Positions 19,186-58,434 of a DNA stretch of 64,000 nucleotides are shown in pieces. The stretch is from Dictyostelium discoideum. Taxonomy: Eukaryota. How positions within the stretch are numbered: position 1 is the first letter of the stretch; the number at the start of each line of letters is the position of its first letter. The stretch spans positions 2,208,001 through 2,272,000 of the forward strand of contig CM000151.3 of NCBI GenBank assembly GCA_000004695.1. The letters are read 5' to 3'. Position numbers and translations under genes: made by a program. A model generated the notes under the pieces. The model was given only the letters and a program-made list of their open reading frames with translations, did not search any database and had not been told where the DNA came from.

Positions 19186-20208
19186 ATGTTGAATGAAGAA
19201 TTATTACCAATTTGGTTAGATCACGACTGCGGACATGATGATGCGTTTGCCATGTTATTAGCATTTCATTCAAAAATATTTAATATTTTAGGTATTTCAA
19301 GTGTTCATGGTAATCAAACAGTTGATAAGACTACCATTAATGCATTGATAACATTGGAAATCATTGGTAAATCAAATTGTGGTTATGAAGTTGTCAAAGG
19401 TGTTAGATCACCAATGTGTAGACCTGAACAAGTATGTTCTGAAATTCATGGTGAAACAGGATTAGATTGTCCAACTGCTGAATTACCAAAACCAACCCAA
19501 CTACCAATTACAGATAGACCTGCAATTCAAGTTATGTTTGAAAAGATATCAAAATTCTATACTGATAATCAACAAAAACAAAAAGTTATAATCGTTGCAA
19601 CAGGTTCATTAACAAATGTTGCCTTGCTATTCGCAGTTTACCCACAAATAAAACCAATGGTAGAAGTCTCATTATTGGGTGGCTCAATTAATTTTGGTAA
19701 TATCTCACCAGCTGCAGAGTATAACATTTTAGTGGATCCTGAAGCTGCAAAAGTGGTTTTCGAAAGTGGTGTCAAGGTCATTATGGTGCCGTTGGAATGC
19801 TCCCATAAGGCATTAGTTAATGAAAAGATTTTAGAAAGAATTTCAGATATTGAAAAAGCAGATGGTAAACAAACTCAATTCATAAAGATTATCAAAGGTT
19901 TATTATTGTTTTTCGCAGATAATTATAAGAGTACATTCGATTTTGATCATCCACCATTACACGATCCATTGGCTGTAGCTTATTTAATTGATCCAACCAT
20001 TTTCAAATGTAAATTAATGAGAGTTGATATTGAAACTTCCTCTCATCTTTGTTTGGGTAGAACTGTTGTAGATTTATTCAGTATGTCAAAATTACAAAAA
20101 AATGTTCACGTTTGTACTGACATAAATGTCGATAAGTTTTGGGATTTAATGATTAATGCAATTGATAATTGTTATAATCATTTATATAAATCAAATATTT
20201 TAAAATAA
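19186..20208 (+). CDS. Inosine-uridine preferring nucleoside hydrolase (IU-NH family), 340 aa, single exon
   Basis: N-terminal LDHDCGHDDAFAML is the DxDxxxDD aspartate cluster that defines IU-nucleoside hydrolases. Start context is aaaATGttg. Confidence 0.85.
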   Translation: MLNEELLPIWLDHDCGHDDAFAMLLAFHSKIFNILGISSVHGNQTVDKTTINALITLEIIGKSNCGYEVVKGVRSPMCRPEQVCSEIHGETGLDCPTAELPKPTQLPITDRPAIQVMFEKISKFYTDNQQKQKVIIVATGSLTNVALLFAVYPQIKPMVEVSLLGGSINFGNISPAAEYNILVDPEAAKVVFESGVKVIMVPLECSHKALVNEKILERISDIEKADGKQTQFIKIIKGLLLFFADNYKSTFDFDHPPLHDPLAVAYLIDPTIFKCKLMRVDIETSSHLCLGRTVVDLFSMSKLQKNVHVCTDINVDKFWDLMINAIDNCYNHLYKSNILK

Positions 20209-20581: not shown

Positions 20582-21156
20582 ATGGTTAAAGATGATAATA
20601 TGAAAGATATTGAAGATGATCATGAAGATGAACATGAAGAAGAGGAAGAACATGAAGAAGAGGAAGAACATGAAGATGAGCATGAGGAAGAGGAAGAAGA
20701 ACATGAAGAAGAGGATGGTGGAGAAAAAACTAAAAGTAAAAATAAAGATAAAGATAATACAAATGATGAAAAAAAGAAATCAAAAAGACGTACACGTGTT
20801 GAAGGTGATATTCAATTACCAGTTGCAAGAATTAAAAGAATAATGAGATGTGATAAAGATGTTAAAATAATTTCTTCTGATGCTGTTATGTTAGTTGCAA
20901 AATCGACTGTAATTATTAATTTATTTATTTCAATTTATCTATTTAAAATTAATAAAATAATCAATTTTTAACATATTTAATATATTTTTATTTTTATATT
21001 ATTTAGGAAATGTTTTTAGATTATTTAGTCAAAGAAGCATATAAATCAAGTGGCAAAAAGAAGACTTTACAATATAAAGATTTAGCTTCAACAATTAAAG
21101 GTGTAGATAATTTAGACTTTTTATCAGAGATTATACCTGAAAAAGTTTCAATATAA
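20582..21156 (+). CDS. Histone-fold protein of the NF-YC/DRAP1(NC2-alpha)/POLE4 class with an acidic His/Glu-rich N-terminus, about 158 aa. It has 2 exons: 20582..20908 and 21007..21156.
   Basis: Exon 1 ends ...LPVARIKRIMRCDKDVKIISSDAVMLVAKST with a GTAATT donor at 20909. A TTTAG acceptor at 21006 opens exon 2, EMFLDYLVKEAYKSSGKKKTLQYKDLASTIKGVDNLDFLSEIIPEKVSI*. This is the histone-fold pattern LPxARIKKIMK...GKRKTL..DL......FL..IIP. Which complex it belongs to (NC2, Pol epsilon or CHRAC) cannot be decided from sequence alone. Confidence 0.75.
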
Positions 21157-22747: not shown

Positions 22748-23077
22748 AACATAAGTCTTTGAAAAAATAAAAATAATAAATAAAAATACATAGTAATTTT
22801 CATAAAAAAACAAAAAAGATATTATAGTTTGAGAAAACAGAAATGTGGTAATTCCAATCACAACTTTTTTTTTTTAAGATATTTTTTTTTTTATCATTTT
22901 TTTTATCAAAAAAAATATTCTGGTAATATTTTCAGAAAAAAAAAATGTTTTTTTTGTCGAAATTGTTGTTGTATTAAAATTTATAAAACATAAGGTGTCT
23001 CATATAAATTTTTTTAATTTTATGACCATTTTTTTTTTTTTTTTCAAAAATAATATTTGCACATCTTTATTAAATAT

Positions 23078-24793
23078 ATGAATAATTCTAAATTTCCAAA
23101 TTATATTTATAAAACTATAATTAACTTTTTAATTGAATATAATTATAAACATAAACAATCATTAAAAGCATATAAAAACTTATTAAATTATAATAATGAA
23201 GTTATTCAACTTTCTCTAGTATCAAAAAAGTGGTTTGAGTTAGTGTCAATCTCTTTAAAAGAAATTTTAAAATTTAAAAATATTAAATTATTATCAAATT
23301 TAATAGATTATAAAAATATTAAAAATAAAAATAAAATAATTAATTATTCATTAAGTATTAATAATAATGATAATCACAACAATAATAATAATAATCAACC
23401 ATCTTTATTAAGAATTCATCAATATAAAAAAAGTAAACATATTAATAATTATTATAATATGCAACCAATTTATAAAAAAGTATTATTAGTTTCAAAAAAT
23501 CATCAAGATTCTATGGATATTATAAAATCGATTAAAAATTATCCACCAAATTATTTATTTAATATAAGAGTATCATCAAATGGACCTGCTTTTTTAGTGA
23601 ATCAATTTGGAAAATTAAAAGAATTTTTATTATTAAATATTGGTAATGATAATGATGAAGGATTGGAAATAATTGAAAATAATTTAAAACTAAATGTAAC
23701 AATAGATTCGATAGTAAAAGAAAAAACTACAACAACATCAACAATGGAAACTACAGAAAAATTATTATTAAATAGAATTAATAAAATTAAATTCTGTGGT
23801 AATTATTGTGGTAGTAATAGTTTTGATCCTACAGAAGTTTTTAAGAAATTAAGTGAATTAAACCCAAAGAGATTAGAATTTAATAGTTTTATGGAAAAAC
23901 CAATTACAAGACTCCCATTTGAAGTTTTTAATTTAAAATCATTAAAATCATTAAAAATAAATGATTCTTCTATTTTAGAACCAAGTTGTCTTTCAAAAAT
24001 TGATAATCAAACTACAAAATTAAAAAAGCTAACTACTTATTTACCATTTAATCTATATGTAGAAGCTTTTAATTCTAGAGATGATAACTATATTAAAGAG
24101 TATGGTTGGGGTCAACTCTTTGAAATATTATCAAATAATAGAACAATTAAAAAACTACATATTAAATATATTTTCTTATCATCAAGACGTTATTTAGATT
24201 ATATGAATGCTAAATGTATTGACCCATTTAAACAAAATACAAATAAATTAAACCAATATTTTAGTTTAATTTTTGATAATAATAATAATAATAATGGTAG
24301 TGGTAGTAGTGGTTGTATAATTGAAACTTTAATAATTGATAAATGGTATTTCATAAATTCAATACTTTATAATTCATTATCATTAAATAAATCAATTATA
24401 AATTTAAAATTATTTGACCAATTTGTTGAACCATTCTTTGAATTTGTTTTACCAATAAATAAAACAATTAGAAATTTATATTTAAAGAATCCAATACTTG
24501 GTAAAAAGAATTTATTTGATATTTTTAAAAAATATTTTAATTTAATTTTAAATTTATATTCAATTTCAATTGTATTTATAATTACAAAAGTAACATCAAC
24601 ATTTATTGAAAAACAAATTGATTTAATTAAAAATTATTATTTATCATTATCACAATCAGAAACTTCAAATTTAAAAGAAATTAATTTTTTAATAGATTAT
24701 AAAGGATTTAAATTAGAAAATAATAAAAAAATTATAAATTTTACTAAAGTTTATAATATTATAATTTCAAAAATACCAATAAATTTTGTATAA
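23078..24793 (+). CDS. Hypothetical Asn/Ile/Lys-rich protein with an N-terminal F-box-like motif (about 571 aa)
   Basis: The long ORF has its first ATG at 23078 (tatATGaat). The ORF track's start at 23057 is a TTG inside a T-run. N-terminal YKTIINFLIEY...LLNYNNEVIQLSLVSKKWFELVS resembles an F-box (LPxEIL..IF..L...L.....VCK.W..L). The rest is leucine-rich-repeat-like and AT-biased, so this call has low specificity. Confidence 0.5.
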   Translation: MNNSKFPNYIYKTIINFLIEYNYKHKQSLKAYKNLLNYNNEVIQLSLVSKKWFELVSISLKEILKFKNIKLLSNLIDYKNIKNKNKIINYSLSINNNDNHNNNNNNQPSLLRIHQYKKSKHINNYYNMQPIYKKVLLVSKNHQDSMDIIKSIKNYPPNYLFNIRVSSNGPAFLVNQFGKLKEFLLLNIGNDNDEGLEIIENNLKLNVTIDSIVKEKTTTTSTMETTEKLLLNRINKIKFCGNYCGSNSFDPTEVFKKLSELNPKRLEFNSFMEKPITRLPFEVFNLKSLKSLKINDSSILEPSCLSKIDNQTTKLKKLTTYLPFNLYVEAFNSRDDNYIKEYGWGQLFEILSNNRTIKKLHIKYIFLSSRRYLDYMNAKCIDPFKQNTNKLNQYFSLIFDNNNNNNGSGSSGCIIETLIIDKWYFINSILYNSLSLNKSIINLKLFDQFVEPFFEFVLPINKTIRNLYLKNPILGKKNLFDIFKKYFNLILNLYSISIVFIITKVTSTFIEKQIDLIKNYYLSLSQSETSNLKEINFLIDYKGFKLENNKKIINFTKVYNIIISKIPINFV

Positions 24794-24917: not shown

Positions 24918-26640
24918 TTAATTTTCCCAATCACTATCGTCTTCATCATCTTCTTCATTTTCACCTAAATTTCCTCTTCGTTTAGCCATTGCTGCTGCTA
25001 ATGTATCTACTAATGAACGATTACCAGACTCACCTAATTGTAATTCTTTTAAATCTGGTAATGGTTCACTTGGATCTACTTTTTTTAAATGACTTGCACC
25101 TCCAAATCCTCTAATACTATCCATGAGATTTGAACGACCACTATCCAATGGTGGCATTGATGTGGGTGGTGCAGAGGTTGGTTTTGATATTGCTGGTGGT
25201 GGAGGTGGTACCATCGATGAATTATTTAATGAAATTGGTGCACTTGGTGGTGGTGGTGGAGGTGGTACCATCGATGAATTATTTAATGAAATTGGTGTTG
25301 GTTTTTCAATTGGTGATTGAATTGATGGTGCTGGTGGTAATGGTGATTTTGGATCAACTGGGGCAACTGGAATATGAGCTAATTGATCAGGCATTGGTGG
25401 TGGTGGTGGAGGCATTACATCACCCCCAACTTTATCAATAATAACTTGTGGTTGTTGAGTAGTTCTTTGAATAATTGGTGGTTGAACGACTGGTATTCTT
25501 TGTTGAGTTGGTGGTGTTGGTGGTAATCCTGGTCTTTTGGAAGTTGGTAACGGTGGTGGTGGAGATTGTAATTTTGTTTGTGAAGGTTGTTGTGATAAAT
25601 CTCTTCTTTGTCTTGGTGGAGGGGTTGGTTGTTTTCTTTGTGGAGTTACTTGTTGTGGTTGTTGTGGTTGTAGTGGTTTTTGTTGATAAAATTGATTATA
25701 ACCTTCTAAATTTTGTGGCTGTTGAGATGATTGATATACATATTGCTGTGGTGTTTCACCTTGGAAAGTGTATTCTTGAGGTTTTTGATTTTGTTGTTGG
25801 TAAACGTATTGTTGTACACCATTCGAAGTTGATTGCATTACTTGCTCCATTTGTTGTGGTGATGGACGTTTTTGTGTTGGTTGTAATGGTTCATCCAATT
25901 TATATTGTGATTTAAATTCTTGTTGGATCAATGGTTCGTTACTATTATATATTTGTTGCTGTTGTGGTTGTTGTGGTTGTGTTGGCTGTAGTGGCTCATC
26001 ATCTGGTTTCATGAAATTTTGATGAATTGGAATTGGTTTACCACCGATTGTAGTTGGTAATTTACCTCTAGTAGTATATGCTTGTTGTTGTTGTTGTTGT
26101 TGTGGTGGTTGTTGTTGAGCCATTTGTTTATATGGTTGTTGTGGTAATGGTTTATTAATTTGTTGGTGTTTTGGTAAAGGTCTAATTTCAGAACCAGGTT
26201 TTGGTGGAGGTACTCTTTGAGCACCCATTTTTTGAGTAGTTGATGTGGGTGGGGGTGGAGGTGGTGCTCTGGATCTAATTGGTTGTTGTTGTTGCTGTTG
26301 TTGTTGTTGCTGAGGAATATTGGTTTGCTGATATGGTGCTGTAGTTGTACCACCTGCCATACCTGCTTTTTGATTATTAATATTCTCACCTATTATACTA
26401 TAAATGAATTGAACAGTTTCTGGATTCTTTAAATCTTTTTTCTTTATACCTGCTGCTTGAAATAATTGTCTCCACTCTGGTGGAATATTTTTAATTTCAA
26501 AACCATTTTCTTTATCCCAACCTATATGAGATTCATGTTTAAAATCAGTTGGACCTGATATCTCCATACCTTTTTCTTCATTTCTATGTCTAGTTTTATC
26601 TAAAACTTTTTGAAAAAATCTACCATGTTTTTTTTTTGTT
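24918..26640 (-). CDS. WASP-family actin nucleation-promoting factor lacking a WH1 domain (basic region, CRIB, poly-Pro, WH2, central-acidic). This is the main exon. It resembles the WH1-less Dictyostelium WASP paralogs, but I am not sure which one it is.
   Basis: Upstream of the ORF-track Met, the frame continues with no stop up to the AG at 26641-26642 (KTKKKHGRFFQKVLDKTRHRNEEKG). The protein has the CRIB motif ISGPTDFKHESHIGWD, more than 300 aa of Pro/Gln-rich sequence with PPPPP runs, the WH2 motif RSNLMDSIRGFGGASHLKKV and the acidic tail ENEEDDEDDSDWEN. A 20-residue unit, PISLNNSSMVPPPPP, is tandemly duplicated; the DNA repeat lies at about 25190-25320. Confidence 0.85.
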
Positions 26641-26782
26641 TCTAAAAAAAAAATAAAAAAAAAATAAATATTAATAATTAATAATAATAATAATAATAAA
26701 ATATAGAAATAGAAATATAGAAAAGAAATAAAAATAAAAAATTATTTTAATTTTAATAAAAATAAAAATAAAAAAAACTTAC

Positions 26783-26810
26783 TTGGATTATGAGAGTCAA
26801 TTTCTGTCAT
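26783..26810 (-). CDS. Candidate first coding exon of the WASP-like gene (ATG ACA GAA ATT GAC TCT CAT AAT CCA A|GTAAGT)
   Basis: A good aaaATG start and a GTAAGT donor are followed by a 140-nt AT-rich intron ending TTTTTTTTTAG at 26641. The canonical donor gives phase 1, but the acceptor requires phase 2. The alternative donor 4 nt downstream (GTTTTT, exon 26779..26810) restores the frame. My read of the T-run length at 26628-26636 is the weak point. Confidence 0.4.
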
Positions 26811-27863
26811 TTTAATTTATTATTATTATTTATTATTAATAATTAAACTTTTTTTTTCTATATAAATAATTTTATTACTATTATTATTTATTATTATTTT
26901 ATTTTTTTATACTATACTATGAAAATAATAGTTTGACATTTTCTCGTTTCAATGGGAGACCACTTTTTTTTTTTTTATTTTTTAAAATACCTTTTTTTAA
27001 TTTTTTTTTTTTTTTAAAAAGTTTTATCCAAAATAAGGAAAAACTAATTACTAAAAAATTTAAAAAAAATTTTTAAATAAAATAAAATAAAATTTTTAAA
27101 AAAAAAAAAAATAAAAAAATAAAAAAATAAAACAAAACAATAGTTTTATTTTTTAAACACAACCCTTAAATCCATGTAATGAATGAATGAGTTTGTTTAC
27201 ATAATTAAAAATTATTATTAATTATTAAATCATTTATTTATTTAAATTTTTTTTTTTTTTTTTTTTTAATTCATTATATATAATATGGGAGATATAAATG
27301 ATAAATAGTTTAAAAACAATTATAATTATAATTATAAATATATATTGTTTAATTTTTTAATTTCTTTTTTTTTTTCTTTTTTTTTATAATTATAAAATCA
27401 TGTTTTATATTTTTTTTTTATTTTTTTTTTATTTATACACTTTTATATTTTTTTTTTTATTATAATTATTTCAAAATATATAAAAGTGTTTAAAAAATAA
27501 AAAATAAATGCGAAATCGATTGTTAATATAATTTAGAATTCGTAATAAAATTCTGAATTATTAATAGCTCTTTTATTAGATTACCATATGAAATTTCTGA
27601 AATAATTTTATTTATAAATTCTTCATTTATTTCTAAAATTAAAAAATATCAAAAAAATTAAAATATAAAAATATAAAAAATAGATAATAAATTTTATTAT
27701 GTTTTTTTTTAATCATCACTATCATCATAAACTCTTTATTACCAAATTTAGATTGTAGAAAGCACCATAAAAAACCTAAAAAGTTATACATTTACAACAC
27801 AACATATAATACCAATTTTGTTATTTAATAATGAATGATTTTGTGTACATATTGTGCCCATTT

Positions 27864-28568: not shown

Positions 28569-28572
<4 letters not shown>

Positions 28573-29975
28573 ATTCAAATGAAGATGAATGTAAATTTAA
28601 ATTTAATGTTAACCAATATATTGAAGAAGAAGCAAAGAAATTACAAGCAGAATGGGATACAAATCCAAGATGGAAGGGAATTAAAAGAGAATATACTGCA
28701 GAGGATGTAATTCGTTTAAGAGGATCATTTAAGGAGGAGCATACATTAGCAAAGAAAGGTGCAGAGAAACTTTGGGATATGTTACATGAAAAAGATAATT
28801 GGGTACCAGCATTGGGTGCACTTTCTGGTAATCAAGCAGTTCAAATGGTACGTGGTGGTCTTAGAGCAATCTATTTAAGTGGATGGCAAGTTGCTGCCGA
28901 TAATAATACCTCTGGCCAAATGTATCCAGATCAATCATTGTATGCCGTAAATAGTGTACCTGAATTAGTTCGTAGAATTAATAATGCCCTTAGAAGACGT
29001 GATCAAATTGAAGTCAATGAAGGTAATCTTGAATTCCAATATCTTCCAACACCAATTGTTGCAGATGCAGAAGCAGGTTTTGGTGGCCCATTGAATGCCT
29101 ATGAACTTATGAGAAGTATGATCGAAGCTGGTGCATCAGGTGTTCATTGGGAAGATCAATTGGCAAGCGAAAAGAAGTGTGGTCATATGGGTGGTAAAGT
29201 ACTCATTCCAACATGTGGTCATATAAAGAATCTTACTGCCGCTCGTTTAGCATCCGATGTTATGGGAGTACCAACATTGATTGTAGCTCGTACCGATTCT
29301 TTGGGAGCTGGTTTGTTGATGAGTGATGTTGATGCACGTGATAAGAAATTCATCACTGGTAAACGTACTGTCGAGGGTTATTATCACTTGAATTGTGGTA
29401 TTGAGCAAGCCATTGAAAGAGCACTCAATTATGCACCCTATTGTGACTTGTTATGGTGTGAAACTTCAACACCATCCATTGAATTAGCCAAACAATTCGC
29501 CGATGCCGTTCATGAAAAATTCCCAGGTAAACTTTTAGCATACAATTGTTCACCATCTTTCCATTGGAAACAACATTTGAAACCAGATGAAATCGCCTCT
29601 TTCCAACGTCAACTCTCTGATTTGGGCTACAAGTTCCAATTCATCACTTTGGCTGGTTTCCATGCTCTCAATTTAACAATGTTTGAATTGGCAAAGGATT
29701 ACAAAAAGAATGCTATGACTGCCTATGTAAATCTTCAAGAGAAAGAATTCTCTTTAGAATCTGAAGGCTATACTGCAACTAGACATCAACGTGAAGTAGG
29801 TACTGGTTACTTTGATCAAGTTTCTCAAATTATCTCTGGTGGTCAATCTTCAACATTAGCTTTAGTAGGTTCAACTGAAGAAGAACAATTTGATGAACAT
29901 ATTGAAAAGAAAAAGAAAGTTGCTCATAATAATAATGGAAATAATAAAAACAAAGCTGCAAGTGTTCAAAACTAA
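28569..29975 (+). CDS. Isocitrate lyase (glyoxylate cycle), 468 aa, single exon
   Basis: The ICL signature K-K-C-G-H-M ([12 protein letters not shown]) is present. So are the conserved N-terminal [20 protein letters not shown], the [12 protein letters not shown] and [11 protein letters not shown] Mg/substrate-binding segments, and NCSPSFHW. Confidence 0.9.
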
Positions 29976-47760: not shown

Positions 47761-47995
47761 TTTAAAATAAATGAAAAAATAAAATGAAAAAATAAAAAAA
47801 AAAAAAAAAAAAAAAGGGAAAAAAACAAAAAAAAAGAAAAAAAAAAACAAAAAAAAAGCGAAAAAACTGAAAAAAAAAATTGGAAAAAACTGAGAGTTTT
47901 TAAATAAGATGTTTATTTGTGGCAATATTATTACATTTATAAATAATATATTATTGGTGGTTTAATATATAAATTATAATTTAATTTTTGTAATT

Positions 47996-48334
47996 TTAAT
48001 TACAACCACAATTGTTTGAACCTCCAGTTAAAATGGAACCAACTCCATGTAAAACAGAACCAACAATTACACCAGTACCAGTAAGAACACCACCAACGAG
48101 ACCACCGACTGCACCGAGTAATCCTCCATTTCCACAACCACCGCATTGAATTGAATTCATTGATTGTAAAGAAGATGACGAGTTTGATAATGATGATAAA
48201 TTATTTGATTTTGAAATTGATTTAACATTACCAATTGATGAGATTGAAGCTATTTTAATAATAAAATTTAGAATTATTATTTATTTATTTTTTTTTTTTT
48301 AATTAATTTCTTTTTACATACCTAAAATTGTCAT
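47996..48334 (-). CDS. HssA/2C/7E-family small Gly/Ser-rich protein, array copy A, 88 aa. It has 2 exons: complement(48322..48334) and complement(47996..48249).
   Basis: A 13-nt first exon ATGACAATTTTAG with a GTATGT donor and a 72-nt intron lead to a second exon encoding [84 protein letters not shown]. The family is identified from the CGGC...GLLG(G/A)VGGLVGGVL...GSNNCGCN pattern. Confidence 0.75.
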
Positions 48335-48416
48335 TTTTATATTTGTTTAATTTTTATTTGTTTGATATACTAATTTTTTTTTTTTTTTTCTTATTAATAC
48401 TTTTTTTTTTATATGT

Positions 48417-48472
<56 letters not shown>

Positions 48473-48947
48473 AACCAAAATGGTAGATTAATTATTGATA
48501 TTCATATTTACAAGATTCTATTATAATATATGTATACTTATGAAAATAATCATATGAATAGGGTAACATGTTTTTTTTAAAGGTTATATAAAGTTAACTT
48601 TTATTAGAAAAATCACAATCACAATCACAATCACAATCACAATAACAATGTAAATTTTTTAAAAAAAATTAATTGTATTCTAATTAGGAAACAGTTTTTA
48701 TACCATTTTAGAACATTTCTTATTTTTTAAAAAAAAAACAATACAATCTAATGACAGTTTTGTTAAAAGGTCAAAAATAATACCCCATTCGTTTTTTTTT
48801 TTTTTTTTTTAAACCCCCTATTAATAAATAAAAAATCAATTAAAAATTATAGATTCAAACAAGGATTGATTGTTTTATATAGAATTAATACATGAATATA
48901 TCATTTTGATGAGAAGTTAATAATTCTTAATATTTTAATAGTATTTT

Positions 48948-48990
<43 letters not shown>

Positions 48991-49062
48991 AATAAAAATA
49001 GTTTATATTTTTTTCATAATTTATTATTATAAAACAAACAAATAAACATTTAAAAATTACAA

Positions 49063-49416
49063 ATGACAATCTTAGGTAATATTTTAAATAATATATTTAA
49101 ATTTTAAATATATATTTAAAAAAACAATATTAATAAATTTTAAAAATTTCAAAATAATTAAATAGCTTCAATCTCTTCAATTGGTAATGTTAAATCAATT
49201 TCAAAATCAAATAATGTATCATTATCAAATTCATCATCTTCTTTACAATCAATGAATTCAATTCAATGCGGTGGTTGTGGAAATGGAGGATTACTCGGTG
49301 CAGTCGGTGGTCTCGTTGGTGGTGTTCTTACTGGTACTGGTGTAATTGTTGGTTCTGTTTTACATGGAGTTGGTTCCATTTTAACTGGAGGCTCAAATAA
49401 TTGTGGTTGTAATTAA
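49063..49416 (+). CDS. HssA/2C/7E-family protein, array copy B, 87 aa. It has 2 exons: 49063..49075 and 49166..49416.
   Basis: Same 13-nt first exon (ATGACAATCTTAG|GTAATA), a 90-nt intron and a second exon 97% identical to copy A. It is head-to-head with copy A, with 730 bp between the two start codons. Confidence 0.75.
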
Positions 49417-49905
49417 AATTACAAAAATTAAATTATTTATATTTTAAATTAACCAAAAATAAAACCCAATTTTATAATTTGTAAAATAAAAAAAAAAAAA
49501 AAAAAAAAAAATATTAAGTAATACCTTTTTTAAAATTATTATTTAAATTATTATATTTCAAAGTAGTTCTTTTTTTTAAAAAAATAATAAAAGAGTTGTA
49601 ACTTTAAAAAATTATTGGTTGGTCTTTTAAATATAAAAAAAAAAAAAAAAAAAAAATTCCAAATTAAATTATTCCTGGGTAATGCAAATTTTAATAATTT
49701 AAAAAAAATTAAAAAAATAAAAAAAATTATTCAATCAAAAGGATTAATCATAAAAAAAATGAATTTTTATCAATTATTTCAACCTAATGTAATTATCTCA
49801 TTTATTACTTTTTCTTTTTTTTTTTTTCTTTTTTTTTTTACATTTACAAATAATTAAATTTTGTTTATTATAATTTATTTAATATATATTTATATTTTTG
49901 TAATT

Positions 49906-50244
49906 TTAATTACAACCACAATTGTTTGAACCTCCAGTTAAAATGGAACCGACTCCGTGTAAAACAGAACCAACGATTACACCAGTACCAACAAGAACTC
50001 CACCAACGAGACCACCAACTCCACCGAGTAATCCTCCATTTCCACAACCACCACCACATTGAATTGAATTCATTGATTGTAAAGAAGATGATGAATTTGA
50101 TAATGATGATAAATTATTTGATTTTGAAATTGATTTAACATTACCAATTGATGAGATTGAACCTATTTAATTGAAATTTTTAATTAATTACAATTTTTTT
50201 TTTTTTATATTTTTTTTTTTTTTTTTACATACCTAAGATGGCAT
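49906..50244 (-). pseudogene. HssA/2C/7E-family copy C with a disrupted first exon. Exon 1 is complement(50233..50244). Exon 2, complement(49906..50162), is intact.
   Basis: The first exon reads ATGCCATCTTAG|GTATGT, 12 nt with an in-frame TAG, where other copies have ATGACAAT(C/T)TTAG (13 nt). This is a 1-nt deletion plus substitutions. Exon 2 would encode a normal family protein if it were entered in phase 1. Confidence 0.5.
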
Positions 50245-50342
50245 TTTATTTATTAAGGTTTGGTTATATTTTGGTTTGGATAATTATAAATTTTTAATTT
50301 TTTCAAAATGATACTTTTTTTTTTTTATATAAAAACTTTTAA

Positions 50343-50385
<43 letters not shown>

Positions 50386-50984
50386 ATTATGTATTTGTTT
50401 TTATTAAATAATTGCAAAAAAATATAAGATACCCTACATTATCATTTATATAAAAAATTATATCTTAGATCATTATGATTTATTTTTTAAGGAAATAATG
50501 GGTTAAATTTTAAGAGAAAATAACACAATCACAATTTAAATTATTATAAAATTTATAGATTATTAAATATACAATTCAAATTAAGAAATAACACTTTACC
50601 ATTCTTGGATGATTCTTTTAAATCTTTTATATTCACTATTTAAGAATATCTATCTATATACAAAATTATCGAAAATGATAAACACAACTTTTTTAAACCC
50701 CCCAAAAAAAAAAAAAAAAAAAAAAAAAATAATAAAAAAATAATAAAAAAAAAAAAAATAAAAAATAAAAAATAAAACAAAGATTGAGTGATAAATTCAG
50801 ATTTAATGTATACATCTACAACGATATTATGATTAAAAGTTAAAGCAATACATAAATTTATTACTATTTAATTTTATTTATTTTTCAATTATTTTATTAA
50901 AAAAAAAAATTATAAAAACTTTTTTTTTTTTTTTTTTTTTTATATTCCAAAACAAACAATTAATACTAAAAAATAATATAAAAA

Positions 50985-51337
50985 ATGACAATCTTAGGTA
51001 TGCTTTATATTTTGTAAAAAAAAAATTAATTATTAAATACTTATTTTTCAAAATTTACTATAATAATAATTATTAAATAGGTTCAATCTCATCAATTGGT
51101 AATGTTAAATCAATTTCAAAATCAAATAATTTATCATCACTATCAAATTCATCATCTTCTTTACAATCAATGAATTCAATTCAATGTGGCGGTGGTTGTG
51201 GAAATGGAGGATTACTCGGTGCAGTTGGTGGTCTCGTTGGTGGTGTTCTTACTGGTACTGGTGTAATTGTTGGTTCTGTTTTACATGGAGTTGGTTCCAT
51301 TTTAACTGGAGGTCCAAACAATTGTGGCTGTAATTAA
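50985..51337 (+). CDS. HssA/2C/7E-family protein, array copy D, 89 aa. It has 2 exons: 50985..50997 and 51081..51337.
   Basis: ATGACAATCTTAG|GTATGC, an 83-nt intron, and exon 2 encoding [85 protein letters not shown]. It is head-to-head with copy C. Confidence 0.75.
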
Positions 51338-51873
51338 AATTACAAAATTAAATTATAATTTATATATTAAACCAACCAAAAATTTAACCTCAATTTTATA
51401 ATTTGTAAAATAAAAAAAAATAAAAAATAGAAATATTTAATAATACTTTTTTAAAATTATTTTTAATTATTTAAATTTCAAAGCAGTTCTTTATTTAAAA
51501 AAAACTAATAAAAGAGTTGTAACTTTAAAATTATAAGTTTGTCTTTTAATTAAAAAAAAAAAACCACAAAAAAAAAAAAAAAAAAAATTCCAAATTAATC
51601 CTAGGTAATGAAAATTTAAATAATAATAATTTAAAAAAAAATTAAAACATAAAAAAATCATTCAATCAAAAAGATTAATCATAAAGAAAATGAATTTTTA
51701 TCAATAACCTCATTAATTACTCAAAATACTTTTTTTTTTTTTTTTTTTTTTTATCAATAACCTCATTAATTACTCAAAGCTTTTTTTTTTTTTTTTTTTT
51801 TTTTTTACATTTACAAATAATTAAACTTTGTTTATTTTTAATTTATTTAATATATATTTATAATTTTTTAATT

Positions 51874-52210
51874 TTAATTACAACCACAATTGTTTGAACC
51901 TCCAGTTAAAATGGAACCGACTCCGTGTAAAACAGAACCAACAATTACACCAGTACCAACAAGAACTCCACCAACGAGACCACCAACTCCACCGAGTAAT
52001 CCTCCATTTCCACAACCACCACCACATTGAATTGAATTCATTGATTGTAAAGAAGATGATGAATTTGATAATGATGATAAATTATTTGATTTTGAAATTA
52101 ATTTAACATTACCAATTGAAGAGATTGAACCTATTTAATAATAAAATTTATTAATACAATTTTTTTTTTTTTTATTTTTTATTTATTTTTTACATACCTA
52201 AGATTGTCAT
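51874..52210 (-). CDS. HssA/2C/7E-family protein, array copy E, 89 aa. It has 2 exons: complement(52198..52210) and complement(51874..52130).
   Basis: ATGACAATCTTAG|GTATGT, a 67-nt intron, then exon 2. It is nearly identical to copy C exon 2. The ORF-track ORFs at 49926..50138 and 51894..52106 are antisense readings of copies C and E. Confidence 0.75.
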
Positions 52211-52697
52211 TTTATTTGTTTTGTTTTGTTTTGTTTTTATTTTGTTTTGTATATTATTAATATTTTTTTTTTTTTCTTATTTATACTTTTTTTTTATTTA
52301 TAAAAACTTTAAATTTTTTGAAAAAAAAAAAAAAAAACTATATTTTTATTTTTAATAATAACTAAACAATTGTAAAAAATATAAGATACCCTACATTTTC
52401 ATTTATTTAAAAAATTGTATCTTAGATCAGTATGATTTATTTATTAAGGAAATAATAGGTTAAATTTTAAGAGAAAATAACACAATCACAATTTATTATA
52501 AAATTTATAGATTATTAAATATACAATTCAAATTAAGAAATAACACTTTACCATTCTTGGATGATTCTTTTAAATCTTTTATATTCACTATTTAAGAATA
52601 TCTATCTATATACAAAATTATCGAAAATGATAAACACAACTTTTTTAAACCCCCAAAAAAAAAAAAAAAAAAAAAAAATAAAAATAATAAAAAAAAA

Positions 52698-52728
<31 letters not shown>

Positions 52729-52936
52729 AAACAAAGATTGAGTGATACATTGAGATTTAATATACATCTACAACTATATTATGATTAGAAGTTAAACCAA
52801 TACATAAATTTAATATTATTTAATATTATTTATTTTTCAATTATTTTATTAAAAAAAAAAAATTATAAATACTTTTTTTTTTTTTTTTTTTTTATTCCAA
52901 AACAAACAAATAAATAATACTAAATAATAATAAAAA

Positions 52937-53314
52937 ATGACAATCTTAGGTATGTTTTATTTTTGTAAAAAAAAATAAATAAAAAAATAAAATAAAAAAA
53001 AAATTTAATTATTAAATACTTATTTTAAAATTTACTATAATAACAATTATTAAATAGGTTCAATCTCATCAATTGGTAATGTTAAGTCAATTACAAAATC
53101 AAATAATTTATCATCATTATCAAATTCATCATCTTCTACACAATCAATGAATTCAATTCAATGTGGTGGTGGTTGTGGAAATGGAGGATTACTCGGTGGA
53201 GTTGGTGGTCTTGTTGGTGGTGTTCTTGTTGGTACTGGTGTAATCATTGGTTCTGTTTTACACGGAGTCGGTTCCATTTTAACTGGAGGTTCAAACAATT
53301 GTGGTTGTAATTAA
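52937..53314 (+). CDS. HssA/2C/7E-family protein, array copy F, 89 aa. It has 2 exons: 52937..52949 and 53058..53314.
   Basis: ATGACAATCTTAG|GTATGT, a 108-nt intron, and exon 2 encoding ...[51 protein letters not shown]. It is head-to-head with copy E. Confidence 0.75.
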
Positions 53315-53700
53315 AATTACAAACTTAAATTATAATTAAAATATTAAACCAACCAAAAATAAAACCCAATTTTTTAATTTGTAAAATAAAAAAAAAAAAA
53401 AATAGAATTATTTAATTATACTTTTTTTAAAATTATTTTTTAAATTTATTATTTTTCAAAGTTGTTCTTTATTTAAAAAATTAATAAGAGTTGTAACTTT
53501 AAATTACAAGTTTGTCTTTTAAATATAAAAAAAAAAAATCACAAAAAAAAAAAATTCCAAATTAAATTATCCCTGGATAAGAAAATTTAAATAATAATAA
53601 ATTTAAAAAAAAATAAAAAAATAAAAAAAATCATTCAATCAAAAAGATTAATCATAAAGAAAATGAATTTTTATCAAAAACCTCATTAATTACTCAAAAT

Positions 53701-53759
<59 letters not shown>

Positions 53760-53978
53760 TTATGCTTTTGAATAGAAATCTCCGTTTGGCTGTCCTCGAT
53801 ATGATTATAATCTTCCATCACTCTCGATTAATATATCAAATTATTGTTTTCAAAAGATAATAAATTAACTACATCAATAAAATATATTAACCCCTTTTTA
53901 AAAAGGGGGTCCAAAAAACAAAAACAAAAATTTATATTAAATTTTATATTTGCACACAAATAAAAATAACACAGCTGT

Positions 53979-54010
<32 letters not shown>

Positions 54011-54116
54011 CAGACCCTGTTTGATAACGTAGTGATAAATACTTTTTTATTTATTTATTTTTTTATTAATATTCCAAAACGAACAAACAAATAATACTAT
54101 TAAATAATATCAAAAA

Positions 54117-54432
54117 ATGACAATCTTAGGTATGCTTTATTTTTTGTAAAAAAAAAAAAAAAAAAAAAAATATTTAAATTATTTGTTTTTTAAAAATTTA
54201 ATAATAATTTTATATAGGTTTAATTTCATCAATTAGTAATGTTAAATCAATTTCGAAATCAAATAATTTATCATCATTATCAAATTCATTATCTTCTTTA
54301 CAATCAATGAATTCAATTGAACGCCGTGGCGGCATTAGCATTAGCAATCCAGGATTTCTCGGTGGAATTGGTCGTAACCCTGGTGGTATTCTTGTTGAAA
54401 CTTATGGAAGCTTGGAGGGGGTTCCATTTTAA
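54117..54432 (+). pseudogene. Divergent, frameshifted HssA/2C/7E-family copy G. Exon 1 is 54117..54129 and exon 2 is 54218..54432 (75 aa as read).
   Basis: Normal first exon and intron. Exon 2 keeps ...[30 protein letters not shown], but the Cys/Gly core is replaced ([37 protein letters not shown]). A 10-nt deficit relative to other copies puts the stop at 54430-54432, ahead of the family's C-terminus. It is either a pseudogene or a divergent Cys-free paralog. Confidence 0.45.
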
Positions 54433-55031
54433 CTGGAGGTTCAAACAATTGTGGTTGTAATTAAAATTACAAAAATTAAATTATAATTTAAATATTAAAC
54501 CAACCAAAAATAAATCCCAATTTTACAATTTGTAAATGAAATAAAAAAAGAGTAATCTTATCTAAATTTTTTTTTTCTAAAATTCAAATAATTATCTTTA
54601 AAATAAAATAAAAATGTAATAAATAAAAATAAAATAAAATAAAATAAAAATAGTATAAAATAAAAATAAAAAAAAAAAATAAAAATAAAATTAAAATAAA
54701 ATAAAAATAAAATAAAATAAAATAATATAAAAAGAATCAATGGTATGTGATAGTGGAGGTAAGTCAGTGCTGTTCTCACTAATGGTGAATTTATTAAAAT
54801 ATTTTTTGTTCAATCGTTGGTGCATTAACAAAATTATTTATATTCTATCTTTTAAACTAAAATTCAAATATTTAAAAATAAAAAATTAAAAATAAAAAAT
54901 TAAAAATAAAAATAAAAAAAATTCCTTTGCCTGAGGGAGGAGATTGATAATTAATTATTACTAATAATAATAATAATAATAATAAATCTTTATTTTTTGG
55001 AAAATGAAAAAAAAAAAAAAAATTGTGATGG

Positions 55032-55131
55032 NNNNNNNNNNNNNNNNNNNNNNNNNNNNNNNNNNNNNNNNNNNNNNNNNNNNNNNNNNNNNNNNNNNNN
55101 NNNNNNNNNNNNNNNNNNNNNNNNNNNNNNN
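55032..55131. other. Assembly gap (100 N)
   Basis: Run of exactly 100 n characters. The left edge of the gap lies inside sequence that is duplicated at +4002 bp. Confidence 0.99.
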
Positions 55132-57125
55132 TGATGTGTTGATGTCAAATGACTAGTAATCTATAAAAATCAAAGTCCGGTTCAAATTTAAAGTCATTTT
55201 AAAAATTTAAATATTTTTCGCTAAAAATTTAAAAAAAATCGATTTTTCAAAAATGGATCGGGGTTTTTATATTTAAAAATCATTCATAAGTAAATTGTTC
55301 CTATTTCCTATAAATTTTCTATAAATTTGAGAATGTTTAAAAACATATACGTTTTTAAATCCTACGAGTAATATTCCTTTTATTTTAATGAAAAGTTATC
55401 ACCTACGAAAAAACACCAAAAAACAGCGATTTTTTCAGAATTTTTTTAGGGGTCTATTTGACCCGCCAGACTACGCGCGTTGTTTCGAGGCTGTGTCAGT
55501 ACATCTGGAAAGCTTACTAGGAACCGTCGGTCGAGTGAACTAAATAGGAGTAATATTTATGAAAGTTACAGTGAAATTTTGCACTTTTTTACCCCCAAAA
55601 ATAGGGGGTACTTGAGAAAGTTTTTTGTAAACCAATTTTTTTTTTAACTTGCCATTTAAAAAGTAAGACATACAAAAGATAGCCCTCATTTTCAGCTATA
55701 TTATATCTAAAAATCATTGGAATAAAAAAATAGTACATATTTTTTTCGAATTTTTTTCGAACCTCCAAATTGAAATTTCTCACATTAATTTTTTTTTTTT
55801 TTATATGAAAAATTTTTTGGCGCCAAAATTTTAATAAGTTTTGATCGTGACCCCCTAGGCAAAAACGGAAAAATACATTAACATCGCCAAGAATATAACT
55901 AATTACAGTTACCTCACGGTCGACTCACCATAAAACCACTGTAATCTGTAAATGAGGATCCAATGTCATATTTTTACGAACTTCCGAGTTAAATAAAAAA
56001 TTGTGTTACTTGGTTGACTCTGCCGTGAGGTAACAGTAAGTGTAAAATTAAAATATCTATCTTTTAAAAAAACTTTGATTGATAAGGAACGACACCATTT
56101 AAATTTTTCGCTAAAATACACCAATTTTTGAATTTATTGGAAAATTTTCACTTTTCGTCCCCAGTCTTTATATTCACTATATGCACATAAGCTATTTGGT
56201 AAAATGTGTCAGAATATCTCTCATTGAGTCTAGTTGCTACTTTTATGGGTCTACATTCACTCAATTTCGTTAATTAAAATATCTATAAAGTTCCTTGAAA
56301 AATCCACGAAAAAACACTGTTTTTGGTGTGTCAACTTGGCGAATTTTTTAGGGGGTCCAGTACCCCCCTTTAAAATACGATCTTGTGTCAGATTATCCCA
56401 AATGCTCTGGAAAGCTTACTAGGAACCGTCGGTCGAGTGAACACGAGGGACTTTTTACTTAGCCTCCTTACACCAAAAAAAACTTGGGAAAAATGGTGAT
56501 TTTTCACTTACCACCCGCCAAAGATTCGATTGAATATTTAATAAAAAAAAATTGAGTGCAAAAAGCGAAATACAGAAGTTAGATACACGATAGATCATTA
56601 ACATACTCAAAAAGAATTAAATTTTAACGAGACGATTTACGCGCAGAATTTTTTTCGATTTTCCGAAAAAAAATTTCTCCATATAAAAAAATTTTTGAAA
56701 ATTTTTTAAAATTTTTTTTTCAGTAATTTTAATTTTTGGTACCTTAATGACCCCGTAGATAAACCGGATCAAGTGATTTCAACTTAGAATTTAATTCTAC
56801 GTCTACCATTACTCATTGGTCGAGTCACCGGTAAACCATAGATTTTTATTTTTCCTCAGATTCAGGCATCGATTCTCGTTGTTGACAAGCCTCAAAATTT
56901 ACTATATCTCAATATTAATTAAAATTAACAAATACAAAAAATAAAGCTCTTTTATATGTATATTGTGGAAGTGGCTATATTCGCTCAATTTTTTTTTATT
57001 AAATATTTTTCATTTTTGCCGGAAAAAAAAAAAAAAAAAAAATTTTCAACTTTCGTCCGAAGTTCCTAAATTTTTTTCTCACTTTAAAATTTAAAAATCC
57101 AATCATACAAAAACATCATAAAAGG
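55132..57125. mobile_element. GC-richer (about 33% GC), ORF-less insertion of about 2 kb built from two diverged tandem units of about 900 bp. It may be a non-autonomous transposon or retroelement UTR-module fragment, or a mis-joined repeat. It is unclassified.
   Basis: Its composition contrasts sharply with the flanking sequence, which is over 80% A+T. There are paired motifs 900 bp apart: CTGGAAAGCTTACTAGGAACCGTCGGTCGAGTGAAC at about 55505 and about 56405, TTTTTCGCTAAAA at about 55215 and about 56103, and CGGTCGACTCACCATAAAACCA / TGGTCGAGTCACCGGTAAACCA at about 55917 and about 56818. A 12-bp inverted repeat GTTACCTCACGG (55908-55919) / CCGTGAGGTAAC (56023-56034) brackets a hairpin-capable segment of about 100 bp. 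The right edge at 57125-57133 abuts a truncated HssA-family copy. The only ORFs are two short ones, of 62 and 64 aa. Confidence 0.4.
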
Positions 57126-57132
57126 GTGAGGA

Positions 57133-57314
57133 TGCTTCTTTACAATCAATGAATTCAATTCAATGTGGTGGTGGTTGTGGAAATGGAGGATTACTCGGTG
57201 GAGTTGGTGGTCTTGTTGGTGGTGTTCTTGTTGGTACTGGTGTAATCATTGGTTCTGTTTTACACGGAGTCGGTTCCATTTTAACTGGAGGTTCAAACAA
57301 TTGTGGTTGTAATT
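57133..57314 (+). pseudogene. 5'-truncated HssA/2C/7E-family copy H (3' 182 nt only)
   Basis: It is identical to the 3' part of copy F's exon 2, ...[16 protein letters not shown]...SNNCGCN*, and to F's downstream flank. Everything upstream of the codon equivalent to SSL(Q) is replaced by the GC-richer insertion. Confidence 0.7.
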
Positions 57315-57702
57315 AAAATTACAAACTTAAATTATAATTAAAATATTAAACCAACCAAAAATAAAACCCAATTTTTTAATTTGTAAAATAAAAAAAAAAA
57401 AAAATAGAATTATTTAATTATACTTTTTTTAAAATTATTTTTTAAATTTATTATTTTTCAAAGTTGTTCTTTATTTAAAAAATTAATAAGAGTTGTAACT
57501 TTAAATTACAAGTTTGTCTTTTAAATATAAAAAAAAAAAATCACAAAAAAAAAAAATTCCAAATTAAATTATCCCTGGATAAGAAAATTTAAATAATAAT
57601 AAATTTAAAAAAAAATAAAAAAATAAAAAAAATCATTCAATCAAAAAGATTAATCATAAAGAAAATGAATTTTTATCAAAAACCTCATTAATTACTCAAA
57701 AT

Positions 57703-57761
<59 letters not shown>

Positions 57762-57980
57762 TTATGCTTTTGAATAGAAATCTCCGTTTGGCTGTCCTCG
57801 ATATGATTATAATCTTCCATCACTCTCGATTAATATATCAAATTATTGTTTTCAAAAGATAATAAATTAACTACATCAATAAAATATATTAACCCCTTTT
57901 TAAAAAGGGGGTCCAAAAAACAAAAACAAAAATTTATATTAAATTTTATATTTGCACACAAATAAAAATAACACAGCTGT

Positions 57981-58012
<32 letters not shown>

Positions 58013-58118
58013 CAGACCCTGTTTGATAACGTAGTGATAAATACTTTTTTATTTATTTATTTTTTTATTAATATTCCAAAACGAACAAACAAATAATACT
58101 ATTAAATAATATCAAAAA

Positions 58119-58434
58119 ATGACAATCTTAGGTATGCTTTATTTTTTGTAAAAAAAAAAAAAAAAAAAAAAATATTTAAATTATTTGTTTTTTAAAAATT
58201 TAATAATAATTTTATATAGGTTTAATTTCATCAATTAGTAATGTTAAATCAATTTCGAAATCAAATAATTTATCATCATTATCAAATTCATTATCTTCTT
58301 TACAATCAATGAATTCAATTGAACGCCGTGGCGGCATTAGCATTAGCAATCCAGGATTTCTCGGTGGAATTGGTCGTAACCCTGGTGGTATTCTTGTTGA
58401 AACTTATGGAAGCTTGGAGGGGGTTCCATTTTAA
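58119..58434 (+). pseudogene. Divergent HssA/2C/7E-family copy I, a duplicate of copy G at +4002 bp
   Basis: 58119..58131 and 58220..58434 match 54117..54432 base for base as far as I can compare them. The ORF-track entries 54558..54779 and 58560..58781 are identical and share the same 4002 bp offset. Confidence 0.45.

Follow-up and report, generated by a model that had tools for sequence, protein, structure and literature searches.

Human WASP and N-WASP combine a basic region, a CRIB motif followed by autoinhibitory helices, a proline-rich region, WH2, a C helix, and an acidic tail with a tryptophan. Strict members of this subfamily also carry a WH1/EVH1 domain, and a GTPase relieves their autoinhibition. 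Dictyostelium discoideum has proteins of this family that lack WH1. They have been named 'WASP without WH1', or WAWH (Kollmar, Lbik & Enge 2012, PMC3298513). WAWH type I is defined by the WASP domain order (basic region, GTPase-binding domain or GBD, proline-rich region, VCA) with WH1 missing (PMC3298513), and DdWAWH_B is its D. discoideum member; DdWAWH_A, of type II, is also WH1-less with GBD, proline-rich region, and VCA. Under a second nomenclature, the names WASP-like B and WASP-like C stand for Q7KWP7 and Q54QH4, respectively (PMC8847673). Both WASP-B and WASP-C possess a GBD and a WCA module and localize at clathrin puncta, the WASP-B GBD binds active RacC, Rac1B, RacA, and RacB, and cells lacking wasB are defective in polarity and chemotaxis (PMC8305917). 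For WASP-B (wasB, Q7KWP7), PMC8305917 cites the descriptions of Veltman & Insall 2010 and Chung et al. 2013.

The gene considered here occupies the minus strand at 24918-26810 of the window, that is, the whole 64-kb stretch of D. discoideum AX4 chromosome 2 that was analysed, and its ATG is at 26810 (Table 1). Other ORFs of the window match AX4 proteins exactly: isocitrate lyase (XP_644989), ribonucleoside hydrolase (XP_644984/Q7KWM9), and seryl-tRNA synthetase (XP_644993/Q7KWQ2). No tRNA genes are found in the 64-kb window. Joined together, the two exons form a 1752-nt CDS that encodes a 583-aa protein, and this product is identical at 583/583 residues to the published DdWAWH_B_fl (supplement of PMC3298513), including the exon 1/exon 2 junction and a duplicated unit. 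The domain order is likewise that of DdWAWH_B, without any difference, and the two are the same gene. The initial annotation, made from the letters alone, had read the locus as a WASP-family gene without WH1, like Dictyostelium WasB and WasC, and this main reading is right. We are therefore highly confident that the locus is the known two-exon AX4 gene for the type-I 'WASP without WH1', most probably wasB / Q7KWP7. The gene is thus already known: it was published in 2012 together with its architecture lacking WH1 and its precise coding sequence.

Table 1. Features of the WASP-family locus, with positions in the window and residues of the 583-aa product.
Feature	Position	Strand	Description
Conserved upstream block	26908..26942	-	35 nt, AAAATGTCAAACTATTATTTTCATAGTATAGTATA; 98-132 nt upstream of ATG
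Exon 1	26783..26810	-	28 nt, ATG ACA GAA ATT GAC TCT CAT AAT CCA A; MTEIDSHNP + first base of Lys10
Single intron	26642..26782	-	141 nt, 95% A+T, GTAAGT...(T)10AG, phase 1, Lys10 split A|AA
Exon 2	24918..26641	-	1724 nt, including TAA stop at 24918-24920
Basic region	26583..26641	-	(K)TKKKHGRFFQKVLDKTRHR; residues 10-29
GTPase-binding domain	26394..26564	-	CRIB core ISGPTDFKHESHIGWD (26514-26561) and autoinhibitory helices
Pro/Gln-rich linker	25155..26369	-	residues 101-505 (405 residues), 44% P+Q, predicted disordered
57-bp (19-codon) tandem duplication	25194..25297	-	copies PISLNNSSMVPPPPP(PPSA) and PISLNNSSMVPPPPP(AISK), just upstream of WH2
WH2-like actin-monomer-binding motif	25074..25145	-	DSGRSNLMDSIRGFGGASHLKKVD; residues 509-532
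Central (C) region, amphipathic helix	24969..25034	-	GESGNRSLVDTLAAAMAKRRGN; residues 546-567
Acidic (A) tail with conserved Trp	24921..24962	-	ENEEDDEDDSDWEN; ends DWEN

The assignment to wasB is circumstantial and comes from the order of accessions. Q7KWP7 falls between Q7KWM9 and Q7KWQ2, two proteins encoded in the window, in the same order as the genes, and wasB rather than wasC is inferred on this account. WASP-B is also what one would expect of the present gene, being a WH1-less protein with GBD and WCA that is encoded on chromosome 2 among Q7KW-series proteins. Because Kollmar's A and B do not depend on dictyBase naming, the gene could in principle be wasC (Q54QH4) instead. This is unlikely, since Q54QH4 comes from a different accession series and the second D. 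discoideum WAWH, DdWAWH_A, is a different protein of the CxxC/Ser-rich/coiled-coil type II.

Within the family, the product belongs to WAWH type I, having the WASP domain order without WH1 and being identical to a listed member. It does not fit type II, as it has no cysteine at all, has a basic region, and shows no long helix between GBD and proline-rich region in the AF2 prediction. Nor is it a SCAR/WAVE protein, a class with an N-terminal SCAR/WAVE homology domain and no GBD: a GBD is present, and Pfam gives only PBD and WH2.

Beyond the GBD, the protein has the parts first read from the sequence, namely a long Pro/Gln-rich region, one WH2 motif, and a C/A tail ending DWEN. The linker carries the short conserved motifs DDEPLQPT/LDEPLQPT and QYVYQ/EYTFQ/QYVYQ; between species it has many indels, with synonymous and nonsynonymous differences about equal. 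The WH2 match in Pfam (E=5.5e-4, 20 bits) stays below the 23.1-bit cut-off and is statistically weak. At the level of the motif it is clear, with the V element of VCA proteins represented by NLMDSIRG...LKKVD (residues 513-532), an AF2 helix over NLMDSIRG, and I, R, L, V, and D columns that are invariant in alignment A2. The C region NRSLVDTLAAAMAKRRGN is predicted by AF2 to be helical (pLDDT about 79) and pairs with the C helix of autoinhibited WASP (1EJ5), although below threshold. This helix and the acidic tail with its Trp correspond to the C/A element of VCA proteins, and both hardly vary among the eight genomes.

Next to the WH2-like motif lies the tandem duplication. It had been taken to repeat a 20-residue unit; the duplication itself stands, but its unit is 19 residues, of which 15 are identical between copies (PISLNNSSMVPPPPP). 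TRF reports it at 25196-25302 (period 57, 1.9 copies, 94% match), and two 47-nt runs, 25297-25251 and 25240-25194, are exactly identical. Only AX4 and the near-identical strain L004 (GCA_054883475.1) have it. It is absent from the D. discoideum isolates L002 and L003 and from the four sister species D. citrinum, D. cf. discoideum, D. firmibasis, and D. dimigraforme, and the unit is single in DcpWAWH_B. Other strains have different in-frame indels at this site, which is thus a genuine indel hotspot. The duplication is a recent variant, produced by slippage or unequal exchange, that segregates in the species and probably matters little for function. In low-complexity DNA rich in proline codons, where most related genomes lack the repeat, one might suspect an error in the assembly of the AX4 reference. 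Such an error is very improbable given that the separately deposited L004 assembly holds the identical duplication, that the copies preserve the reading frame, and that the indels of the other strains at the site are also in frame.

Both the basic region and the CRIB motif noted at the outset belong to the N-terminal module. The basic region TKKKHGRFFQKVLDKTRHR can be aligned to the basic motifs KSKGRFFKKLL / KKSKSGFFSKIL of relatives that carry WH1, with F and K invariant in alignment A2. It is followed, as in strict WASP / N-WASP proteins, by a CRIB-containing GBD with autoinhibitory helices. Pfam matches PBD at residues 36-92 (E=3.3e-17), and the human WASP/N-WASP GBD structures 2K42, 1EJ5, and 1CEE are matched at E about 1e-12; the AF2 model of the GBD (pLDDT 73-78) has 1EJ5 as its best fold match. 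The first 100 codons differ from those of D. firmibasis by 23 synonymous and 3 nonsynonymous changes, which indicates purifying selection on this module. A mechanical ORF list yields a 549-aa single-exon ORF that begins at Met35 (MEISGP...) and would leave exon 1 outside the gene. Such a start is very hard to credit, because the in-frame stretch upstream of Met35 is the basic region, homologous to that of WH1-bearing relatives and hardly varying among eight genomes, where most changes are synonymous, and because conservation of exon 1 greatly exceeds that of the intron (93-100% identity across the eight Dictyostelium genomes, against only 50-78%).

The WH1/EVH1 domain of strict WASP / N-WASP proteins is lacking here, in agreement with the first reading. 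The protein has no Pfam match to PF00568, tblastn with five WH1-bearing relatives finds no WH1 in the 64-kb window, and a dictyostelid WH1 profile run against the six-frame translation of the window gives no signal (best E 0.88). It had been recognized that junctions to an upstream exon encoding WH1 would overturn this reading, and the 64-kb window offers no support for such an exon. Since WH1 is present in every one of the closest relatives outside the D. discoideum/D. purpureum group, one might still suppose that the exon lies further upstream and that the real product is a full WASP. We consider this extremely unlikely: besides the missing signal in the 64 kb, a divergently transcribed isocitrate lyase gene begins only 1758 bp upstream, four in-frame stop codons directly precede the ATG, seven independent annotations share this same start, and a lengthy search by Kollmar et al. 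found no WH1 (PMC3298513).

There is nothing unusual at the first splice site. The GTAAGT donor had been held to be in the wrong phase, a miscount in which exon 1 was given 27 nt and not 28. Exon 1 leaves one base over (28 mod 3 = 1), and exon 2 begins 74 nt before the ATG of the ORF (74 mod 3 = 2), so that the GTAAGT donor is in frame with the obvious acceptor; the A that it leaves and the AA following the poly-T/AG acceptor together form the Lys10 codon. Both reading frames entering the intron run into stops. As the initial annotation noted, the exon-2 frame ends within the intron, at the TAA of 26744-26742. Spliced at this junction, seven other Dictyostelium genomes also yield an intact ORF, in agreement with each independent annotation (583, 583, 571, 573, 576, 572, and 596 aa). 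The donor is GTAAGT or GTATGT at +28 in 8/8 genomes. Intron length (141, 141, 173, 171, 115, 133, 110, and 164 nt) is thus free to depart from multiples of three. Sequence logic and conservation, together with two annotation efforts made independently, point to 26783|26641 as the splice.

That the canonical donor is unused, in favour of GTTTTT 4 nt downstream (previously thought to fix the frame) or on account of a reference homopolymer error in the A/T run at 26627-26636, can practically be dismissed: GTTTTT at 26778 does open a 577-aa frame with another acceptor (CATGGTAG| at 26621-26620), but that acceptor is poorer, lacks a polypyrimidine tract, and would remove KTKKKHG of the conserved basic region, while with the poly-T/AG acceptor GTTTTT gives a frameshift and immediate stops, the site is not conserved (GTTATT in L002 and L003, GTTTAT in D. 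dimigraforme) as the +28 donor is in all eight genomes, and the A-run reads in frame in every genome, making the recount once advised for it needless.

Upstream of the gene, the 35-nt block AAAATGTCAAACTATTATTTTCATAGTATAGTATA is almost invariant in 7/7 compared genomes, unlike the surrounding AT-rich spacer. The upstream region with this block has no Rfam match, and the block is a probable, putative promoter or 5'UTR element.

Comparison with human WASP and N-WASP extends over all the features that they share with the locus product, and the GBD is about 50% identical to that of human WASP over 55 residues. The product differs from them in lacking WH1/EVH1, and hence WIP-family regulation, in having one WH2 where N-WASP has two, and in its much longer Pro/Gln linker of about 400 residues. 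Closer likeness is found in long-linker WASP paralogues that bear WH1, those of T. lacteum (P0003), C. fasciculata (P0047), H. album (P0002), S. polycarpum (P0052), and EukProt P0005. Their GBDs are the closest to that of the locus (55-67% identity), their linkers contain the same ordered motifs, LDEPL(Q/K)PT and then (T/Q)(Y/F)V(Y/F), and they have the same VCA. In three of the four checked, a phase-1 intron stands ahead of the basic region. Unlike the locus gene, they have an N-terminal WH1 that is encoded by two exons. These relatives were sought by an exhaustive HMMER search on the GBD; a full-length homology search gave six matches and was swamped by low-complexity words, and a search with the joined N- and C-terminal modules returned 154 candidates and missed the dictyostelid orthologues.

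In phase, split codon, and position, the single intron of the locus agrees with the intron that follows WH1 in dictyostelid WASP genes bearing this domain; in the WASP genes of C. fasciculata, H. album, A. subglobosum, and P. violaceum this intron is in phase 1 and splits A|AA or A|GA. The match suggests that a mini-exon took the place of the WH1 exons. In the ancestor of the D. discoideum/D. purpureum group, the old acceptor would have come to be joined to a new first exon of 28 nt. On this evidence from sequence comparison, we lean somewhat towards the view that the type-I WAWH of D. discoideum and its close relatives is a WH1-bearing dictyostelid WASP paralogue minus its two WH1 exons, and not an ancient separate family. 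No synteny was detected between the locus and its counterparts in T. lacteum, H. album, and C. fasciculata. Every deep node of a neighbour-joining tree of GBD+VCA (200 bootstraps) is unresolved; as the tree supports neither WasA nor the long-linker paralogues as sister group, it was left out of the orthology argument.

As a separate observation, the fused C-terminal histone-fold part of the EukProt P0005 protein matches the window at 20720-21153; the match lies on the strand opposite to the WASP gene and is therefore only a weak hint of linkage.

From domain anatomy and published work on WASP proteins, the protein would act as an autoinhibited nucleation-promoting factor, by the same GTPase-relieved mechanism as human WASP / N-WASP. 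At rest, the C helix of the WH2-C-A module would be folded back on the GBD helices. Binding of an active Rac-family GTPase to CRIB would then release the module, possibly aided where acidic lipids engage the basic region and SH3 or profilin ligands engage the proline tracts. Once free, the module may deliver actin and switch on the Arp2/3 complex, an activity that we infer from the VCA. Without WH1, control by WIP/verprolin-type partners would not be expected.

To the publication of DdWAWH_B, the present analysis adds a comparison of populations and species and the argument from intron homology. The duplication beside WH2 is a laboratory-lineage or strain polymorphism, which is relevant when AX4-derived WASP-B constructs are compared with wild isolates. 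The intron-homology point, new but modest, suggests a concrete and testable account of how WH1 was lost, and touches the question whether 'WAWH' forms a natural family or arises by recurrent truncation. If this account is true, 'WAWH' would be polyphyletic, and the locus would offer a clean case from nature of a domain lost through replacement of 5' exons.

An ORF scan of the window identifies a WASP-family gene on the minus strand at 24918-26810. When 26810-26783 is spliced to 26641-24918, the resulting 1752 nt encode a 583-aa protein with zero internal stops. This product is identical at all 583 positions, the junction and the duplicated unit included, to DdWAWH_B_fl from the supplementary alignment of PMC3298513, from which gaps were removed before comparison. 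The gene is therefore a WH1-less WASP-family member, as the initial annotation had assigned it, and is already described; that annotation's observation is largely correct. Kollmar et al. 2012 describe the group as WAWH, "WASP without WH1 domain", in which type I follows WASP in domain order but lacks WH1, and report a long search for WH1 5' of the D. discoideum GBD (GTPase-binding domain) that found none (PMC3298513). The other D. discoideum member, DdWAWH_A, is the CxxC/Ser-rich type II (PMC3298513). A review gives the accessions Q7KWP7 for WASP-like B and Q54QH4 for WASP-like C (PMC8847673). Since the accession Q7KWP7 lies between Q7KWM9 and Q7KWQ2, those of the flanking genes, in window gene order, and since DdWAWH_A is type II, we infer that the gene is wasB. 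The exact 583-aa AX4 sequence has no exact match in a 15-billion-sequence protein collection. The word-indexed search of it also missed the D. discoideum strain, D. citrinum, D. firmibasis and D. dimigraforme orthologues, although their annotated genomes are present, and low-complexity queries appear to defeat the index.

Positions of the WASP gene, its parts and neighbouring features in the window
Feature	Position	Strand	Remark
Exon 1	26810-26783	minus	28 nt, not 27
Long ORF	Met35 at 26567 to TAA 24918-24920	minus	open frame
Conserved 35-nt block AAAATGTCAAACTATTATTTTCATAGTATAGTATA	26908-26942	minus	98-132 nt 5' of ATG; cross-genome comparison
Isocitrate lyase XP_644989/Q558S7	28569-29975	+	exact match to D. 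discoideum AX4 protein
Ribonucleoside hydrolase XP_644984/Q7KWM9	19186-20208	+	exact match to D. discoideum AX4 protein
Seryl-tRNA synthetase XP_644993/Q7KWQ2			neighbouring ORF; exact match to D. discoideum AX4 protein
578-aa ORF	23057-24793	+	converges on WASP gene
Histone-fold (CBFD_NFYB_HMF-type) gene	20582-21153	+	N-terminus very acidic, His/Glu-rich
Repeat cluster	~47900-59100	both	units ~0.3-2 kb

The splice phase of the first exon, earlier called unresolved because the GTAAGT donor seemed to be in the wrong phase, was an arithmetic error by one base. The ATG at 26810 (context AAAATG) opens ATGACAGAAATTGACTCTCATAATCCAA, followed by GTAAGT, and the length of this exon leaves one codon base over. 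Exon 2 begins 74 nt before Met35, that is, two bases plus 24 codons, so that an A|AA junction makes Lys10 in frame. 5' of Met35 the frame is open across TKKKHGRFFQKVLDKTRHRNEEKG as far as a poly-T/AG acceptor at 26643-26642; extended further upstream, the exon-2 frame meets TAA at 26744-26742, and thus stops inside the intron as first proposed. The intron is 141 nt long and 95% A+T (5% G+C), and exon 2 has 37% G+C. The GTTTTT donor that had been offered as a frame fix runs into a stop within 18 codons when used with the poly-T/AG acceptor. It gives an open frame only with another acceptor, CATGGTAG|, but this one has no pyrimidine tract and its use cuts away part of the basic region.

The orthologous locus was taken from seven other genomes, located via the adjoining isocitrate lyase gene: D. 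discoideum L002, L003 and L004, D. cf. discoideum L001, D. firmibasis L005, D. dimigraforme L006, and D. citrinum L007. In 7/7, splicing from a donor that follows nt 28 (GTAAGT or GTATGT) to the first poly-T/AG (or CAG) acceptor leaves an intact ORF, whose length equals that of the independently annotated product (583, 583, 571, 573, 576, 572, and 596 aa). Exon 1 is 93-100% identical to AX4 and the intron 50-78%; intron length varies between 110 and 173 nt, and multiples of three are not kept. Compared with D. firmibasis, there are 23 synonymous and 3 nonsynonymous changes in the first 100 codons, 17 and 7 in the VCA (WH2, C helix and acidic tail), and 79 (plus many indels) and 74 in the linker. 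These counts indicate that the ordered modules of the gene are under selection, and a decaying pseudogene is rejected on this ground. At residue 92 (26394-26396 region), in the last GBD helix, AX4 has Ile (FIYSIIGEN) and all seven other genomes have Val. As this is the sole coding difference between AX4 and L004, Ile92 may have arisen in the AX4 lineage alone.

The internal tandem duplication noted at the outset is borne out by TRF (25196-25302, period 57, 1.9 copies) and by identical 47-nt stretches at 25297-25251 and 25240-25194. It adds a second polyproline tract beside WH2. AX4 and L004, whose proteins are 99.8% identical, both carry the duplication, and L002, L003 and four sister species lack it; DcpWAWH_B, probably from D. 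purpureum, has a single unit. By this distribution the duplication is judged recent and polymorphic. L002 and L003 carry other small in-frame indels at the same site, which makes the proline-codon tract an indel hotspot.

Pfam places a PBD at residues 36-92 (E=3.3e-17) and a sub-threshold WH2 at residues 509-532, and the GBD matches human WASP/N-WASP GBD structures 2K42, 1EJ5, and 1CEE (E about 1e-12). The AlphaFold model, for which the alignment was shallow, shows disorder over most of its length (mean pLDDT 47.5); its confident parts are the helices of the GBD (73-78) and that of the C region (about 79), a short WH2 helix is also predicted, and its top structural match is 1EJ5, autoinhibited WASP. 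This anatomy supports the standard WASP mechanism, with steps drawn from homology: at rest the GBD would hold the C helix; Rac-GTP on CRIB would free it, assisted by lipids bound to the basic region and by SH3/profilin ligands bound to the proline tracts; the freed VCA would then activate Arp2/3. As reported in PMC8305917, the WASP-B GBD binds active RacC, Rac1B, RacA and RacB, WASP-B is found at clathrin puncta, and F-actin is mis-polarised in wasB-null cells. Within the fast-evolving Pro/Gln linker, residues ~223-313 (~25730-26000) hold the conserved motifs DDEPLQPT, LDEPLQPT, QYVYQ, EYTFQ, and QYVYQ. WH1-bearing dictyostelid paralogues show these motifs in an identical order. Across the YVY/YTF pair the AlphaFold model has a beta-hairpin, at low confidence; the motifs are possibly binding sites for some partner.

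Around the gene, isocitrate lyase starts 1758 bp upstream on the opposite strand. The 578-aa ORF, for which the orthologous loci have no recorded domain hit, ends close to the WASP gene: just 124 bp separate the two stop codons, which means that the 3' ends or polyadenylation regions must overlap or be packed closely together. A homologue of the histone-fold gene is fused to the C-terminus of the WASP-like EukProt protein P0005; probably an error of gene prediction, this fusion is a hint that the pair lies side by side in that genome as well. The block AAAATGTCAAACTATTATTTTCATAGTATAGTATA is nearly invariant among the D. discoideum strains, D. citrinum, D. cf. discoideum, D. firmibasis, and D. 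dimigraforme, while its AT-rich surroundings diverge. It has zero Rfam matches and holds a short ATG-initiated frame, MSNYYFHSIV*, whose stop varies between genomes; the block may act as a uORF, or as an element of the core promoter or 5'UTR. The clustered repeats, for example 49815-51752 versus 51782-53725 (89% identity) and 53133-55031 versus 57135-59033 (99.8%), hold coding-like stretches rich in proline, to which the WASP linker gave cross-matches in tblastn, and look like a tandem gene family or repeat element.

The absence of WH1 holds by every search made. Pfam gives zero WH1 on the 583-aa protein, and tblastn of five WH1-bearing relatives against the window gives nothing for their WH1 parts, the alignments starting at exon 2, from their basic/CRIB region onward. 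A WH1 profile made from four dictyostelid proteins and run on the six-frame 64-kb window has a best E of 0.88, with nothing upstream of the gene, where a WH1 exon had been named beforehand as refuting. In an exhaustive GBD search, the nearest relatives outside the clade (P0005, T. lacteum P0003, C. fasciculata P0047, S. polycarpum P0052, H. album P0002) all have ~150-190 residues before the GBD; those with Pfam hits on record have WH1, and its core motif is common to all five. Several WH1-bearing relatives share with the window protein the ordered linker motifs LDEPL(Q/K)PT then (T/Q)(Y/F)V(Y/F), whereas the WasA-type protein of P. violaceum (P0054) lacks both. In P. violaceum, a truncated WASP-like gene (L012, 3887-4443; 167-aa product) has a WH1-like start and CRIB but lacks a VCA. 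In A. subglobosum another WH1 gene stands in tandem with the WASP gene (L011, 5046-6365), and the gene order GCS-WASP-LIM is common to this species and H. album.

A phase-1 intron directly follows WH1 in H. album, C. fasciculata, A. subglobosum, and P. violaceum WasA, and is lacking in T. lacteum. The codon it interrupts is Lys or Arg (A|AA or A|GA), and it lies 8-60 residues ahead of the basic motif. In the gene under study, the single intron is likewise in phase 1 and interrupts a Lys codon as A|AA, one residue ahead of this motif. On the simplest reading, which to judge from these sequences has about an even chance of being right, the old acceptor and 3' exon were retained and the WH1-coding exons were replaced by the 28-nt exon. 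We offer it as a hypothesis, because a distance tree came out without resolution and no synteny with the relatives' loci was found. This origin of the WH1-less state by exon replacement is the sole point here that is possibly new.
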